64,000 nucleotides of DNA from Enterobacter phage CC31, in sequence record NC_014662.1; one strand, written 5' to 3'. Each line of letters opens with the position of its first letter. Position 1 is the stretch's first letter. Shown piece after piece: positions 5,002 to 64,000 of this stretch. Below the pieces are notes generated by a model, which ran no database searches, was not told the origin of the DNA, and was given only the letters and a program-made list of their open reading frames with translations. The position numbers were made by a program, and so were the translations under genes.

Positions 5002-5064
5002 AGTGTTCCTCCAGTGATTCTGGGGAAACTTTTCAGTTTCCCCATATATTACCATTAACAGCTG

Positions 5065-5137
5065 CTAGTGTACCTGGACTCGAACCAGGGAATCGTAGAA
5101 TCAAAATCTACTGCCTTACCAACTTGGCTATACCCCA
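5065..5137 (-). tRNA. tRNA-Gln (UUG), no encoded CCA, acceptor mismatch
   Basis: Manual fold: anticodon arm GTAGA-TTTTGAT-TCTAC, T-arm CCTGG-TTCGAGT-CCAGG; body close to remembered E. coli tRNA-Gln. Confidence 0.7.
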
Positions 5138-5143
5138 ACTGTT

Positions 5144-5220
5144 TGGAGGCGGGTGATGGACTCGAACCATCGCGTAACGGGATATGAACCCGTCATTCTA
5201 CCAACTGAAGTTAACCCGCA
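5144..5220 (-). tRNA. tRNA-Met/Ile2 (CAU)
   Basis: Anticodon arm ACGGG-TTCATAT-CCCGT, T-arm GATGG-TTCGAGT-CCATC, encoded CCA; position 1:72 unpaired. Confidence 0.65.
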
Positions 5221-5230
5221 CTTATCCGGA

Positions 5231-5318
5231 TTCCTGAAGTACAACGGCTGCTTTATGTAGAACTCACCTATTGTGAGGGAACAAAATCACTGGTCCTGGC
5301 ATTAATTATGGACCACCA
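5231..5318 (-). ncRNA. Candidate structured small RNA within tRNA island (not a tRNA)
   Basis: Outer 9-bp stem ttcctgaag/cttcaggaa enclosing two hairpins (GGTCC..GGACC and CTCAC..GTGAG); no T-loop motif. Confidence 0.35.
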
Positions 5319-5340
5319 TCTTCAGGAACTGCCTCGTATT

Positions 5341-5416
5341 TGGCGGACCTAACGGGATTCGAACCCGTGACTCTCACGTGACAGGCGAGTATTTTCACCG
5401 CTGAAACTATAGGTCC
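5341..5416 (-). tRNA. tRNA-Asp (GUC)
   Basis: Perfect cloverleaf: acceptor GGACCTA/TAGGTCC, anticodon arm CTCGC-CTGTCAC-GTGAG, T-arm ACGGG-TTCGAAT-CCCGT, CCA encoded. Confidence 0.8.
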
Positions 5417-5658
5417 AAATTATCTTTCGTGATTATGTGAATCCCTCAGGTTTTCCGGAAAACCGAATAGGCGACAAAAGCTCTCATATACCCGTGCACA
5501 GATATAATCTTTGTTAACTAGTGTCTGAATCAGTATAATCCGAAAGATAACTTTCGGCGCCGTATTTAATTTGAGATATGTAGTTATCGTTGAGGGAACT
5601 CATATTCAGGGATTAACATGCCGACGACTTTGTCAGAACGTCTTCCAACTTCTATATT

Positions 5659-5743
5659 TGGCGGGTCGTGCAGGTATCGAACCTGCCTAGTCATTTCTGA
5701 CACGGATTAACAGTCCGCCGCTTACCCTCTCAGCCAACGACCC
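5659..5743 (-). tRNA. Type-II (long variable arm) tRNA with Asn anticodon GUU
   Basis: 85 nt; acceptor GGGTCGT/ACGACCC, 3-bp D-stem, anticodon arm GCGGA-CTGTTAA-TCCGT, 15-nt variable hairpin GTCA-GAAA-TGAC, T-arm GCAGG-TTCGATA-CCTGC, G73, CCA. Confidence 0.6.
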
Positions 5744-5748
5744 AAATT

Positions 5749-5823
5749 TGGTTCTCCGTAAGAGAATTGAACTCTTCTTTCCGACGTGAAAGGCCGGCGT
5801 CCTAACCGATAGACGAACGGAGA
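5749..5823 (-). tRNA. tRNA-Glu (UUC)
   Basis: Acceptor TCTCCGT/ACGGAGA, anticodon arm CCGGC-CTTTCAC-GTCGG, T-arm AAGAG-TTCAATT-CTCTT, CCA encoded. Confidence 0.7.
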
Positions 5824-5824
5824 T

Positions 5825-5902
5825 TGGTAGGACGTGAGGGAGTTGAACCCATCGACATTCCGATTAAAAGTCGGATGCTCTAACCAACTGAGCTAACGTC
5901 CT
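5825..5902 (-). tRNA. tRNA-Lys (UUU), weak T-stem
   Basis: Acceptor AGGACGT/ACGTCCT, D-arm GCTC-AGTTGGTTA-GAGC, anticodon arm TCCGA-CTTTTAA-TCGGA; T-stem only 3 bp. Confidence 0.65.
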
Positions 5903-5940
5903 GTAGATATTTATAATAACAAAAATATCTTTAAGCAAAT

Positions 5941-6016
5941 TGGTGGGAATAACTGGACTCGAACCAGTGACCTAACGATTATCGGTCGTTTGCTCTACCA
6001 ACTGAGCTATATTCCC
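5941..6016 (-). tRNA. tRNA-Ile (GAU), C at position 33
   Basis: Acceptor GGGAATA/TATTCCC, D-arm GCTC-AGTTGGTA-GAGC, anticodon arm AACGA-CCGATAA-TCGTT, T-arm CACTG-GTTCGAG-TCCAG, CCA. Confidence 0.7.
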
Positions 6017-6115: not shown

Positions 6116-6475
6116 TTATTTAAGAACTGTTGAGTTCATCGATTTAACCAAGAAAACTTGGTGTGGTGAACGAAGTGAACCTTCAATAGTGCGATGTTCT
6201 GGAAAATTGGTTGAAGTCTGAAAACCAGCTACACGGTAACCTTGCTCAGTCCATCCTAAAAGGATACCAACCATACAGCCAGAATATTTTCCGCTTTTAT
6301 CCAAAGCTACAATATCACCAGGAGCAATTTCATTACCCATTGAATCAGGCTTAATCCATTGTGGAGTAACCAGTTCTATAGGTATATTTATACCGCTTGA
6401 AAAGCTGTAATATTCGTCTGAACGTAAGCCCTGAATGCTTTTAAAGACTTTATGCCAAGTTTTACTGATGCTCAT
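6116..6475 (-). CDS. Hypothetical protein
   Basis: 119 aa ORF directly upstream of tRNA island. Confidence 0.5.
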   Translation of the reverse strand: MSISKTWHKVFKSIQGLRSDEYYSFSSGINIPIELVTPQWIKPDSMGNEIAPGDIVALDKSGKYSGCMVGILLGWTEQGYRVAGFQTSTNFPEHRTIEGSLRSPHQVFLVKSMNSTVLK

Positions 6476-10839: not shown

Positions 10840-10867
10840 TTCATTTTCCTCTAATAAATAATATTAC

Positions 10868-10875
10868 TATTTATA
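10868..10875 (-). promoter_or_regulatory. T4-type late promoter box TATAAATA for gene 4
   Basis: Exact TATAAATA on minus strand about 29 nt upstream of gene 4 ATG. Confidence 0.6.
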
Positions 10876-10888
10876 AAGTGGAGGCTTT

Positions 10889-13204: not shown

Positions 13205-13708
13205 ATGGTTGACATACTTCCAGTAAGCACTGAGTTGCCTGATATTCAAGAAGGTGGTTCAGTTAATCAAACATTCACTGCTCAATTAGAAGCAACAGAC
13301 ACATTAGAGTCTATAAATATAATTGATTTTCAACCTACTCCTGGGATTACAGTCTCAGGAGCTAATTACACAGGCGTTTATGAGAGTGTCTTTTCTTTCG
13401 GAGGAGATGCTCTTAAATACCGAGAAGGTAATGAATTTAAAGTAGCCCAATCATGGGAATCTTTACCACCTCCTGGTACAGCCGATTTATACCTCTGGAA
13501 AGCCCCCTCTAAACTTGAGAGGACCTTTACATACACAGTTAAGGTTACATATTGGAGACAAGGTGAAGACACTACAGGACCATCTGGTGAACCTGTCACA
13601 CCTCCTCCAGTTAAAATGGAAATGACCAAAACTTATTCTCAGTTAGTGTATGGTAATTGGAGCAAATGGGCTGAACAACTTCGCTCATACGTATATGCGA
13701 GACCATAA
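13205..13708 (+). CDS. gp5.1-like protein
   Basis: 167 aa ORF between gene 5 and 5.4. Confidence 0.55.
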   Translation: MVDILPVSTELPDIQEGGSVNQTFTAQLEATDTLESINIIDFQPTPGITVSGANYTGVYESVFSFGGDALKYREGNEFKVAQSWESLPPPGTADLYLWKAPSKLERTFTYTVKVTYWRQGEDTTGPSGEPVTPPPVKMEMTKTYSQLVYGNWSKWAEQLRSYVYARP

Positions 13709-42387: not shown

Positions 42388-42648
42388 TTAGAATTTAATT
42401 TTGAAAGATTTGCCCTGGTAGTCAGAATTGAACTCATAAGAGAACTTTTCTTTATTCAGGAATCCTTTTATAGCGGTTTCATGAGAATACCACTCACTTG
42501 GAATAATATAAAGGGCTTCAAACTTGCCGCGGGCGGCAGCGTCGCGAAGATGGTCTTCAATATGGGTTTGAACTTCTTTTGGTAAATTTGTATTAGCTGA
42601 CTCAGCCATATTCCTGTAGAAATTAGCAAGACTCATTATAATCACCAT
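42388..42648 (-). CDS. Hypothetical protein (T4 24.2 position)
   Basis: 86 aa ORF. Confidence 0.5.
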   Translation of the reverse strand: MVIIMSLANFYRNMAESANTNLPKEVQTHIEDHLRDAAARGKFEALYIIPSEWYSHETAIKGFLNKEKFSYEFNSDYQGKSFKIKF

Positions 42649-42750
42649 ATAAATATCAATAATTAGGGAGGGTTCTATCCTTCTATCGTCAAGCGTATGT
42701 ACTAGAAAGAATCCGTGAAACCATTATACCACGCGGATTCTTTAAGCATA

Positions 42751-43332
42751 TTATAGAGGGATTACTTTATACTTCTTATTGCCACGAGCATCACGCTTAC
42801 AAACTAATTTGCACTTCATGCCGCTTGTGATAGTGTAATCTTCATCAACCTTCATCCGCATCCAGTCTAATACCATTCCAGATGGGTTCAAAGATTTTTC
42901 AACTTCAACCATAATTTTAGTGCCAGACTTATAAAACTTAGATTCTTGTTGCTCATAGTCAGATAGTGCGCGAGCAAACGCAGATGGGCTTAAGAATTTA
43001 TTATAACCGTGAGCAGCAGCCACAAATGTATTATCTAAAGCATGTTTGATATTTTTGATTACGACTGTTGCGTAACCGATGTGTTTTTCTGGATAGTGAG
43101 TCATTACAAAGTCCTCATGAACTGCGAAAGTTTTTTGATGACGAGATTTTACATCAACATTTGATAAGCGTTTACGATAAACCACTTTCTCTTTTCGTTT
43201 AGATTTAGCTTTTGCCGATTCAACTTTAGCATAATATAAAGCTGCTTCTTCGGGTTTAATACCCGCTTCTCTCGCAATTTCAATAAAACTCAATCCGCAC
43301 TCATGCTTAAAATGAATCTCAATCGGTGTCAT
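42751..43332 (-). CDS. Hypothetical protein (T4 24.3 position), possible N-terminal HTH
   Basis: 193 aa ORF; basic. Confidence 0.5.
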   Translation of the reverse strand: MTPIEIHFKHECGLSFIEIAREAGIKPEEAALYYAKVESAKAKSKRKEKVVYRKRLSNVDVKSRHQKTFAVHEDFVMTHYPEKHIGYATVVIKNIKHALDNTFVAAAHGYNKFLSPSAFARALSDYEQQESKFYKSGTKIMVEVEKSLNPSGMVLDWMRMKVDEDYTITSGMKCKLVCKRDARGNKKYKVIPL

Positions 43333-45023: not shown

Positions 45024-45045
45024 TATAAATATAAATGTATTTATA
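45024..45045. promoter_or_regulatory. Divergent late promoter boxes (TATAAATA on plus for uvsW; on minus for inh/hoc)
   Basis: tataaata at 45024..45031 and tatttata at 45038..45045. Confidence 0.55.
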
Positions 45046-47545: not shown

Positions 47546-47944
47546 TTAGTTACGGCTTGAGCTTGCCAATTGAAGCTTAATCTGTTCAAGGTCGTCCGGG
47601 TTGTCAATGACGGAGAACTGAACTTCAACGATAAGCGTGTAATCATCGTAAACCGGAGTGACGTTCACCTGAAGACGACGAATGCGTGGTTCATAGTTTC
47701 TTATAGCAGATGTGATGTTTCGTTCTACTGTGTCAGCCGTAAGAGGAGTCATGTTCTCGAAAAGCTGGTCTTGTAAATCACACCCAAAGTTAGGGTCAAA
47801 TGGACGGCTTCCCTTTCTTGTTGTTATAATACCTAAAAGAGAGTTTTTAATTGCTCGTAACCCACGAGCACGTGCAACGTCTTTGGACCAGTTCATTTTA
47901 AGTTCAGGGTCCAAATCCGAATAAAGGTCGTTTATATTTGCCAT
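47546..47944 (-). CDS. 25: gp25 baseplate wedge
   Basis: 132 aa (T4 132); synteny. Confidence 0.9.
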   Translation of the reverse strand: MANINDLYSDLDPELKMNWSKDVARARGLRAIKNSLLGIITTRKGSRPFDPNFGCDLQDQLFENMTPLTADTVERNITSAIRNYEPRIRRLQVNVTPVYDDYTLIVEVQFSVIDNPDDLEQIKLQLASSSRN

Positions 47945-48573
47945 TACAGATACCTGAAGAATTCTTTAAGGCCTTTAATCACTTCAACGTGAGTTGCTCC
48001 GCATTTCTGACATTTCACAGGAACTGCTAGATAAACGGTAGGCTTTAAAAGCATATTTTTGATGCGGATAATATCCTCTTCAGTGATAGCTGAGTAAAGG
48101 TCATCGATTTCTTTGTCATTCAAATCTTCGATTGAAATGGTTTCACCATTCACATAGATGTACTCGATACACGTAGCAATCATCTGTGCGATGTTTTTAT
48201 CATCGAATAATTTTGGATAACGAAGCTTAAGTTTAAAATTCGCTAGAGGATACCAGAGTTCCTCTGGTTCATCGATTTGTGCAGATGTAAAGTTAATCGG
48301 CGTTAATGTTTCGTGACCTTCTGGACATATCCAGATGTTCTCATGATTAACCTCACCTAATGAGTGAGACCATAACTGAATCAGCAGAAGTTCTGACTCT
48401 TGCTTGTTAAGGTTTCGTGCTGATGTACAATTATTAATCAGCCGTTTTACTACTTCACCAATGTTTCCATTGATTTTGCCATCGATGAGCTCTTTGTATT
48501 CTTCTAACGTAAAAGCTCTGCATTGGATATCAGAGCCATTAATCTGGACTTCAAATTTGTAATCGTAGTTCAT
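47944..48573 (-). CDS. 26: gp26 baseplate hub
   Basis: 209 aa (T4 208); synteny. Confidence 0.85.
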   Translation of the reverse strand: MNYDYKFEVQINGSDIQCRAFTLEEYKELIDGKINGNIGEVVKRLINNCTSARNLNKQESELLLIQLWSHSLGEVNHENIWICPEGHETLTPINFTSAQIDEPEELWYPLANFKLKLRYPKLFDDKNIAQMIATCIEYIYVNGETISIEDLNDKEIDDLYSAITEEDIIRIKNMLLKPTVYLAVPVKCQKCGATHVEVIKGLKEFFRYL

Positions 48574-48590
48574 ATTAGCTCCTTACGGAC

Positions 48591-48602
48591 TATTTATAAA
48601 TA
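48591..48602. promoter_or_regulatory. Overlapping divergent late promoter boxes (gene 26 on minus, gene 51 on plus)
   Basis: Palindromic tatttataaata: tatttata 48591..48598 and tataaata 48595..48602. Confidence 0.6.
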
Positions 48603-48622
48603 TTTCAATAAAGGAGACCTCT

Positions 48623-49375
48623 ATGGCCAATATAATTCGTTGTGTACTACCGGACGGGGTCCATCGTTTTAAACCCTTCACGGTAGCTGATTACAGAGAT
48701 TTCCTTCTGGTTCGTAATGATATGCAACATAAAACTTACGAAGAGCAGAAGGTGATTATAAAAGAACTTTTAGCTGATTACTTTGGTGAATATCCTGAGA
48801 CTTTACGTCCATACATGTTCATGAAGGTATTCACTGGCTCAATCGGTAAAACAAAAATTCCAGTAGCTTTCACCTGTCCGACTTGCGAAAAACAAAAGCA
48901 AGTTCTGTTTGACATCAGCCAAGAAGATTTGGTTGAGCCTACTATTGAAGTTGCCGGAATCACAATAGCTTTTAAATTCCCTGAGAAGGAATACGAAGAT
49001 AAAGCTGCAATGATTTACGATTGCATTAAAGCAATTAAATACAACAATCAATGGTATCCTTGGAAAGAGATGTCAGAAGACAACCAAATCCAAGTGATAG
49101 AAGCAATTGACTTTACAACGTTTGAAAAGATTTACACTCAACTAACTCCAATGAGATTTGAACTTAAAATGAAATGTTGCGAGTTAAGAACAAACGTGTA
49201 TGAAGACATTTTATCAGTCTTTAAGCTTCTTATAAACCCAGATGAAATTTTTAGCTTCTATCAAATCAATCACACTCTGGTTAAAAGTTCATATGATTTG
49301 AACAGCATAATGGGTATGATTCCAATCGAGCGAAGCATCGCCCTTTCGTTAGTAGAGAAGGACAATAAGAAATGA
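48623..49375 (+). CDS. 51: gp51 baseplate hub assembly catalyst
   Basis: 250 aa (T4 249); synteny. Confidence 0.85.
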
Positions 49376-51016: not shown

Positions 51017-52773
51017 AAACCGAAAACATGAAGACTATGCGTCGGAAGGTTATTGAAGAGGGTCGTAGTGAAAGAGATGCAGCGAAAGCTGCATCAACTC
51101 AAGCCGAATCTTTATCAGTTCTTTCTTCACAGCTTGATGATTTACAAACTCAAGCTGAGCTTACGTCTGAAGTAATTGAGGATAAAGGTAATCAAGTTAT
51201 TGATGCCTTGAATCGAGTTGACCAAAGCATAATTGATACTACTGCCGGGGCTGAATTAACTGCCGAAGCATCTGAAAGAACCACGGAAGCTGTTAAGCAA
51301 CAGACCGAAGTGTCAAACAAGATTTCAGATAAGCTCAGTAAGCTGACTGAACTTTTAAATGAACGTCTTTCAGCTATCACTCCGAATCTTCCGCAGATAT
51401 CTGTTCCCGATACATCTCTGTCTGTAGTTGAAGATGCAGTACCTGTTGATATAGTGACACCAGGGTTACCAGAGTTACTTCAGGAGTTAATTCCTGACCC
51501 TGTCAATAATACCAATAACCCTAACGATGCGTTCTTCCCTACCGTTCCAGAGAACCCAGAGAGTGATTCTAAAAAGGGAGCTGACGAGGAACGTAAGAAG
51601 AAAGACTCTGACACTCTGAGTAATCTGCTTAAAGCTACAAAAAGTGGATTTAAGGCTTCAATGAGTATCACGGATAGAATAGCTGGAATGCTTTTCAAGT
51701 ACACGGTAACTGCTGTGATTGAAGCTGCTAAAACAGCCGCATTGCTGTTCTCTATTGTGCTCGGTATCGATGTCATAATGAAGCACTTCAAATATTGGTC
51801 AGACAAATTCACTTCAGACTTTGATAAGTTCTCTGCTGAAGCTGGCGAATGGGGAAGCACATTATCATCTATATTCGGAACACTTGAAAACATTCAGAAG
51901 TTCTGGGAAGCTGGAGACTGGTCTGGATTGACTGTTGCTATTGTAAAAGGCGTAACTGAAATCATTTACAACCTCAGTGAACTCATTTCTTTAGGAATGT
52001 CAAAAGTAGCTGCCGCTATTCTTTCACTTATTCCTGGCTTAGGAGATGCTGCATTATCTGTTGAAGGAGCTGCATTAGAAGGTTTCCAAGAAAGAACCGG
52101 TAACTCTCTTTCTAAAGAAGACCAAGATACATTAGCTAAGTATCAATCATCTAAGATTGAAAAAGGCGAAAACTTCTTCGATAAAGTATCTCAAGGTAAA
52201 ACTTGGATTGTTAACAAAATAACTGGAGATGCTAACATTTCTGATTTTGTTACAGACGAAGAAAGAACAGCTCAGAACGAAAAACTCCGTCAGATGAAAC
52301 CTGAAGAAAGGGAACAAGTTCTGAAGAAAGGTAATGAAGCTCGTGCTGCTATTGTCAGATTTGAAAAATACATGGAACAAATCAATCCTGACGATAAACG
52401 TTCAGTTCAATCAGCTGATAAAGCATACGCTAATCTTCAGACACAGTTAAATGACACTGACCTGAATAATTCTCCTATTACCAAAAAAGAATTAAATGCT
52501 CGTATGAATATTGTTACTGCTAAGTATGATAAGCTCAAAGGCAAAGAACCACAGCCTGCTCCATCATCTCAATCTGAAGATGTTAAAAAAGTCGAAAGTA
52601 TCGAGAAGAATAAAGCAGCTGAAAAAGCTTCATTAGGAACTGGCGCAGGAGCTGCAGCAGCTAACTTGTTCAATACAAACAACGTCATTAACAACAGTAG
52701 AACTATAAATACTGTTAGTCCTGTAACGAGCACTAATGCTCCAGGCGTATTTGGTGCAACTGGTGTTAACTAA
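51013..52773 (+). CDS. 29: gp29 tail tape measure
   Basis: 586 aa (T4 590); synteny. Confidence 0.9.
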   Translation: MKTENMKTMRRKVIEEGRSERDAAKAASTQAESLSVLSSQLDDLQTQAELTSEVIEDKGNQVIDALNRVDQSIIDTTAGAELTAEASERTTEAVKQQTEVSNKISDKLSKLTELLNERLSAITPNLPQISVPDTSLSVVEDAVPVDIVTPGLPELLQELIPDPVNNTNNPNDAFFPTVPENPESDSKKGADEERKKKDSDTLSNLLKATKSGFKASMSITDRIAGMLFKYTVTAVIEAAKTAALLFSIVLGIDVIMKHFKYWSDKFTSDFDKFSAEAGEWGSTLSSIFGTLENIQKFWEAGDWSGLTVAIVKGVTEIIYNLSELISLGMSKVAAAILSLIPGLGDAALSVEGAALEGFQERTGNSLSKEDQDTLAKYQSSKIEKGENFFDKVSQGKTWIVNKITGDANISDFVTDEERTAQNEKLRQMKPEEREQVLKKGNEARAAIVRFEKYMEQINPDDKRSVQSADKAYANLQTQLNDTDLNNSPITKKELNARMNIVTAKYDKLKGKEPQPAPSSQSEDVKKVESIEKNKAAEKASLGTGAGAAAANLFNTNNVINNSRTINTVSPVTSTNAPGVFGATGVN

Positions 52774-63375: not shown

Positions 63376-63624
63376 TTATTTCAAAGTCACTACGAAGTGA
63401 CGAACCGCTTTACGAGCTGCTGAACACAGAGGTTTAGCAAACTTCAACTCATCTTTCAGAGCAAGTGCATCGCGGAGGTCTGCCTGAACAGGATTCAGAT
63501 GTTTGAAACCTTTCAGAACTTCCAGTGCTTCGGCGTAAACGTCGATAGATGCACCGTAGTTTTCGTGACCTGCGTTCCAGGAGTTGCGCTGCAGATGCAG
63601 AGCGTGTTCAAGTTGTTTGTTCAT
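63376..63624 (-). CDS. rIII: rIII-like lysis-inhibition accessory protein
   Basis: About 82 aa from MNKQLEHALHL; sits just before gene 31 as T4 rIII; recalled from memory. Confidence 0.55.
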   Translation of the reverse strand: MNKQLEHALHLQRNSWNAGHENYGASIDVYAEALEVLKGFKHLNPVQADLRDALALKDELKFAKPLCSAARKAVRHFVVTLK

Positions 63625-63755
63625 TGACATTATGTCATTCCTCAATACGAGGTTAATAAAAGGTAGACGGTATCAGAGTTTAATCTATGCGTCTACCACC
63701 TTGTAATTTCTCCGGGTAACTTTTGTCCGGCAGCCAAATTACAATAATATTTATA

Positions 63756-64000
63756 TCACCCGTAGATACACGGAATTGATTTCCAATGACAAGTCACAAA
63801 TTTTTGTGCAATTTCTTTTGGTTTTTTCATACCAGCAGCGACAAGCGGATGAGGTACATTACGAATCTGACCAGTTGGCAGCGGCACTAACATACCGACT
63901 TCGAAAATACCTTCAGGAACATCCGCGCCGATTGAATATATTTCACACATATCGGGGATTTGTCCGGTTTCTTGTTTGCCGATAACAATACCGCCAGAAG
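63756..64000 (-). CDS. 31: gp31 co-chaperonin (GroES-like), N-terminus off-window
   Basis: C-terminus [33 protein letters not shown] matches T4 gp31; frame stays open to window edge. Confidence 0.85.

Follow-up and report, generated by a model that had tools for sequence, protein, structure and literature searches.

What is the 12-bp palindrome that lies between the divergent genes 26 and 51 of this phage, and can it start transcription of both genes at once? The window, by which we mean the whole stretch of 64,000 nucleotides analysed here, comes from a T4-like Enterobacter phage. The region is 96-98% identical to Enterobacter phages such as EcL8g, myPSH1140 and PG7, in which the genes at the junction are annotated as T4-like gp25, gp26, gp51 and gp27. 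Over 3027 bp the window matches the IMG/VR contig IMGVR_UViG_650627040_000001 at 100% identity, and this contig encodes a homologue (L165) of the late sigma factor gp55, with 81% identity to T4 gp55. The proteins that flank the three divergent junctions considered below are also recognisably those of T4, with identities of 64% (gp26), 57% (gp51), 76% (UvsW), 57% (Inh), 74% (gp4) and 72% (gp53).

Read directly, the letters at window positions 48591-48602 are tatttataaata. The octamer TATAAATA is present on both strands, at 48595-48602 (+) and at 48598..48591 (-), with an offset of 4 bp, and the central TATA of the palindrome is the overlap common to both boxes. The features of the junction are as follows.

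48591..48602, both strands: 12-bp palindrome TATTTATAAATA with both late-promoter boxes inside it, exact sequence read
48595..48602, plus strand: gene 51 promoter box TATAAATA, placed at -13 to -6 by the rule of PMC1524935
48608, plus strand: predicted +1 of gene 51, an A, from the box position rule, giving a 15-nt leader
48591..48598, minus strand: gene 26 promoter box TATAAATA, exact match
48585/48584, minus strand: predicted +1 of gene 26, with a leader some 11 nt long
48613..48616, plus strand: gene 51 ribosome-binding site GGAG, a conserved block in the palindrome-anchored alignment
48579..48582, minus strand: gene 26 ribosome-binding site GGAG (CTCC on the plus strand)
47944..48573, minus strand: gene 26 homologue (baseplate hub), first in a leftward 26-25 unit
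48623..49375, plus strand: gene 51 homologue (baseplate hub assembly), first in a rightward 51-27-28-29-48-54 unit

The gap between the two open reading frames is 49 bp, and the distance from the end of the box to the ATG is 20 nt for gene 51 and 17 nt for gene 26. Since the late box of T4-type promoters occupies positions -13 to -6 (PMC1524935), the predicted divergent start sites are 23 bp apart. The overlapping divergent boxes that the first-pass annotation had described here are thus present as claimed, both exact and offset by 4 bp.

We consider it highly probable that the palindrome is a compact two-way late promoter of the gp55 type, serving the 26-25 and 51-27-28-29-48-54 operons. The TATAAATA box on each strand, lying at -13 to -6, would be read by the host RNA polymerase carrying gp55, activation at both boxes coming from gp33 and the gp45 sliding clamp. 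The plus box would start the rightward 51-27-28-29-48-54 baseplate-hub operon at about 48608 and the minus box the leftward 26-25 unit at about 48585, and both leaders would be very short, beginning almost at the ribosome-binding site. Economy of genome is the best account of the overlap: a gap of 45-53 bp has to accommodate a pair of boxes, each with its 6-nt spacer and its ribosome-binding site, and TATAAATA and its complement are able to share the self-complementary TATA. The spacer of the gene 26 promoter in the window (GTCCG) is richer in G+C than usual, implying that the two promoters, P51 and P26, may differ in strength. Across relatives, a comparison of the A+T content downstream of the two boxes gave no consistent asymmetry (Wilcoxon P = 0.40).

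Could such a palindrome have arisen by chance? The window contains 18 exact copies of TATAAATA, a 4.6-fold enrichment over the 3.9 +/- 2.0 expected from dinucleotide-preserving shuffles (n = 100), none of which reached 18. Thirteen of the 18 sit 14-42 nt upstream of the start of an open reading frame on the same strand, whereas positions 10-45 nt upstream of such starts make up only 2.4% of strand-positions (binomial P ~6e-18 for the box placement). The exact 12-mer is present as a single copy in the window, and when one mismatch is allowed there are two matches, compared with 0.6 expected. A chance origin for the 26|51 palindrome is therefore rejected, on the enrichment of the boxes relative to the shuffles and on their placement upstream of gene starts. 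Apart from the two boxes of the palindrome, no box with up to one mismatch is found between 47900 and 49400, an interval that takes in all of genes 26 and 51, and a search of the 49-bp gap for a sigma-70-like promoter gave no match, leaving one candidate promoter for each of the divergent genes. The majority of the window's late promoters serve one direction; at 26|51 two of them are packed into 12 bp.

The element is also strongly conserved. We compared the 26|51 junction in 14 Straboviridae genera, including one Acinetobacter phage of another subfamily, among which the identity of gp26 falls to about 30%. The 12-mer TATTTATAAATA is exact in 12 of the 14, the Acinetobacter phage among them, and both of the exceptions retain back-to-back boxes at the junction. 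In Krischvirus a box of the ACTAAATA type and a TATAAATA box have 4 bp between them, and in Tulanevirus there is a 10-bp palindrome, TATTTAAATA, in which the boxes overlap by 6, implying that the exact overlap is not indispensable. Among related IMG/VR loci, found with a seven-sequence alignment of gp26, the 12-mer is present at the junction in 38 of 39; the 39th has a split gene 51 and its junction could not be parsed. When 29 distinct contexts are aligned on the palindrome its 12 columns are invariant, and the flanks are variable and of low information except for the two ribosome-binding sites. The distance from box to ATG is 16-24 nt on both sides in these 29 relatives, and the base 6 nt downstream of the box is an A in most of the 29 sequences, again on both sides. 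With its shared spacing, A and ribosome-binding sites, the gap can be seen as two mirror-image units, each comprising box, 5 nt, A, ribosome-binding site and ATG. Consensus boxes, at the proper leader distance and invariant across genera, make the first-pass assignment of divergent late promoters to genes 26 and 51 very probably correct.

Can both promoters be in use at the same time? Open complexes at late promoters are stable and site-specific, and the gp45 clamp is located at the upstream end of the activated complex, where it adds 13 bp to the footprint (PMC2988020). With start sites only 23 bp apart, a clamp-bearing complex at one promoter would reach upstream over the other, so that occupancy of the two would be mutually exclusive, with one polymerase at a time on the site and the direction chosen at each initiation event. 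The geometry thus favours the earlier proposal that simultaneous occupancy is impossible. What the analysis shows is the sequence, enrichment, positioning and conservation of the boxes and the presence of a gp55 gene; the start sites are predicted, mutual exclusion is deduced from footprints at other late promoters, and an influence of either direction on its opposite would be a further step.

The same geometry raises the question of whether this arrangement is regulatory. Competition between the divergent transcripts, as put forward in the first-pass annotation, is plausible. That the two baseplate operons restrain or balance one another through the shared site, one going down when the other goes up, is a more specific proposal, and one that we regard as possible but rather unlikely. 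Mutually exclusive occupancy is required by the geometry, the exact overlap is frozen across genera, and in the bidirectional promoters of Escherichia coli, when one direction is strongly activated, polymerase competition is by itself enough to repress the opposite one (PMC12825309). In that same study, however, basal activity was too low for competition at all five of the five promoters tested, the steric effect appearing only at high activity (PMC12825309). Nor does conservation demand a regulatory role. It is fully explained by two boxes that are unable to mutate independently: because the boxes are merged, any base change must harm at least one promoter, and the 12-mer is thereby frozen. 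Krischvirus, with boxes 4 bp apart, and Tulanevirus, with an overlap of 6, moreover depart from the exact overlap.

The dyad symmetry, which is perfect over 12 bp, might instead indicate that a dimeric DNA-binding protein controls both operons and that the palindrome is chiefly its binding site. DsbA could be such a protein: it is reported to bind A/T-rich sites that overlap late promoters, and sites overlapping two T4 late promoters have been mentioned, but its affinity is micromolar, its gene is non-essential and it had no effect in vitro (PMC2988020). More generally, the symmetry equals that expected from two overlapped consensus boxes, and no symmetric positions outside the 12-mer are conserved in the 29 contexts. 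We therefore reject a regulator-binding site as the main explanation, and rate it extremely improbable. It is also conceivable that only one box works. TATAAATA is close to its own complement, for which reason a weak match on the reverse strand is common beside a box, and in A+T-rich DNA the other box might have arisen in this way. Here, however, both halves are exact consensus sequences and invariant in the 29 contexts, genes 26 and 51 are each first in their units with no alternative box within 1.5 kb, and the ordinary one-way late promoters of the window have no exact reverse box beside the forward one. A single working box is thus very improbable, and the two-way late promoter is the reading that we retain.

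Do the other divergent late junctions in the window share this arrangement? The first-pass annotation described similar arrangements at 45024-45045, between inh and uvsW, and at 10868..10880, between genes 4 and 53. At the former, the exact boxes on both strands are confirmed.

45024..45031, plus strand: uvsW box TATAAATA, exact, with predicted +1 at 45037
45038..45045, minus strand: inh box TATAAATA, exact, with predicted +1 at 45032

There is, however, no overlap and no shared site. The boxes are crossed, with 6 bp between them, so that each is found just downstream of the start predicted for the other, and the predicted starts at 45037 (+) and 45032 (-) mark the two ends of the shared 6-bp spacer. 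The offset between box starts is 14, both in 18 of 18 IMG/VR loci and in T4. Two one-mismatch boxes lie beside or near this crossed pair: TATAAATG at 45030-37 (+) and TATAACTA at 45042-49 (+), the latter forming a near-palindrome (TATTTATAACTA) with the inh box. As a candidate for the uvsW promoter, TATAACTA at 45042-49 was rejected: besides carrying a mismatch, it would place the start past the ribosome-binding site, and T4-type relatives do not retain it.

At the 4|53 junction the minus box proposed earlier is exact, but the plus box, TATAAAGT at 10872-79, has two mismatches and there is no overlapping pair. As a promoter for gene 53 this plus box can be rejected; it ends 9 nt before the ATG, so that the start would fall after the ribosome-binding site. 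When one mismatch is allowed, the only plus-strand box at the junction is AATAAATA at 10853-60.

10868..10875, minus strand: gene 4 box TATAAATA, exact, with predicted +1 at 10862
10853..10860, plus strand: gene 53 box AATAAATA, a variant with A at -13, likely promoter, with predicted +1 at 10866

This box is crossed with the gene 4 box at an offset of 15. In T4, the 4|53 junction has an exact TATAAATA where the window has AATAAATA, with an offset that is likewise 15, and the offset in enterobacterial-type relatives is 15 or 18. A at -13 is the commonest variant of the late box, found at 9 of the 50 late sites listed for T4, although not all of these are proven to be active in vivo (PMC2988020). 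Judging from sequence and position, we conclude that gene 53 is probably transcribed from AATAAATA at 10853, and that the earlier assignment should be corrected. Both inh|uvsW and 4|53 are thus crossed promoters with a shared spacer of 6-7 bp and no shared box.

Other geometries are seen at 4|53 in some relatives. In L071 (IMGVR_UViG_2706796453_000001) the usual crossed pair is replaced by the back-to-back 12-mer TATTTATAAATA, and in L103 by a back-to-back 14-mer, TATTTATATAAATA, implying that crossed and back-to-back geometries can interconvert. In a set of environmental gp4 loci from distant uncultured relatives (L092-L097, L107, L117 and L125), the plus late box overlaps the start codon of gene 4 as CATATAAATA; the promoter of the divergent gene here begins within the initiation codon of its neighbour. 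Each of the three divergent late junctions holds its own tight geometry across many genera of T4-like phages, and this is the only, modest, addition made by the present study.

Several other exact boxes in the window stand in unusual contexts. Within a cluster of seven tRNA genes at 5064-6016, a minus box at 5915..5908 separates tRNA-Ile from tRNA-Lys (window 5825-6016), and its predicted +1 (5902) falls on the base at which ARAGORN begins tRNA-Lys. The sequence suggests a late transcript that would begin at, or next to, the mature 5' end of tRNA-Lys. The minus-strand open reading frame 42388-42648 has its start codon (CAT, 42646-48) overlapped by a plus box at 42648-42655. This box points into a 100-bp gap with a hairpin, and then antisense to the minus-strand frame 42751-43332 (window 42646-42750). 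No plus-strand gene lies downstream of this box for 2.4 kb, and the homologous 24.3|hoc gap of T4 has no late box. Three further exact boxes are inside open reading frames, at 13312-13319 (+), 6385-6392 (-) and 52704-52711 (+). The last of these, 71 nt before the start of the gene 48 homologue (52783), could serve as a late promoter inside the operon; those at 13312 (+) and 6385 (-) have no nearby downstream gene start in the window. Finally, a minus box at 63755..63748 (window 63630-63776) is 117 nt upstream of the minus-strand frame 63376-63630, much farther than the others, with G+C-rich inverted repeats between the two.

If one polymerase at a time uses the 26|51 site, what would set its direction? 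The gp45 clamp has two different faces, its orientation is fixed by the strand that carries the 3'-OH at the loading site, and this orientation sets the polarity of activation (PMC2988020). We may speculate that the direction chosen follows the orientation of the clamp. The shared site could in that case be a polarity switch read out by gp45, in which the arriving orientation activates one promoter only, although we consider this improbable. Were it true, the ratio of 26-25 to 51-27-28-29-48-54 transcripts would report which strand was nicked, or whether the duplex was a leading- or lagging-strand product, and the three junction geometries (overlap of 4; crossed at 14; crossed at 15 or 18) would be tuned for clamp polarity.

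How, then, does the two-way promoter at 26|51 compare with known systems? Its closest counterpart is in T4 itself, where the identical 12-mer TATTTATAAATA is found at NC_000866 116450-116461, between the same two genes and in the same orientation. The element in the window is orthologous to the overlapping P26/P51 promoters of T4; it is real, deeply conserved and already known, and its presentation as a fresh observation cannot be upheld. Scarlato et al. (1989, Virology 171:475) reportedly described overlapping promoters from which the T4 base plate gene cluster is divergently transcribed. No promoter feature is annotated at the 26|51 site in the T4 GenBank records NC_000866 and AF158101. A 1991 study by Gruidl et al. 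of the 25/26/uvsY transcription units is cited in PMC2988022. There are small differences between the two phages. Host and genus are different, the window being from an Enterobacter phage, and the gp26 and gp51 proteins are 57-64% identical; the 26|51 gap is 50 bp in T4 compared with 49 bp in the window, and the palindrome in the window is 4 nt nearer to gene 26, which shortens the gene 26 leader. The crossed pairs of T4, at inh|segE and 4|53, have the same geometry and offsets (14 and 15) as those at inh|uvsW and 4|53 in the window. In T4, however, the homing-endonuclease gene segE is inserted between the promoter and uvsW, whereas the window has no segE, and the gene 53 box is an exact TATAAATA in T4 but the A(-13) variant in the window. 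PMC2988022 refers to the late promoters that precede inh and segE.

No new kind of element is revealed by this analysis. What it provides, for annotation of the phage, is a promoter assignment for two baseplate operons and a corrected one for gene 53. The three junctions are also convenient natural systems in which to ask what governs the balance between divergent late transcripts, be it polymerase competition or the orientation of the clamp.

In more general terms, the 26|51 site resembles both the T4-type late promoters and the bidirectional promoters of bacteria. With the former, which depend on the gp55 sigma factor, the gp33 co-activator and the gp45 clamp (PMC2988020, PMC1524935), it shares the 8-bp TATAAATA box, the lack of a -35 element and a position just upstream of late-gene homologues, and the phage of the window encodes gp55. 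In the bacterial bidirectional promoters described by Warman, Grainger and colleagues, divergent starts flank a shared, symmetric, A/T-rich opening element, as they are predicted to do here, and one binding event excludes the other, as would be the case at 26|51. The predicted spacing of 23 bp between starts is one of the common bidirectional spacings (18, 10 and 23 bp; PMC12825309). The bacterial promoters, however, are built from sigma-70 hexamers with flanking -35 elements, whereas the 26|51 site uses an 8-bp box that would be read by gp55, and its activator would be a sliding clamp, which has no specific binding site.
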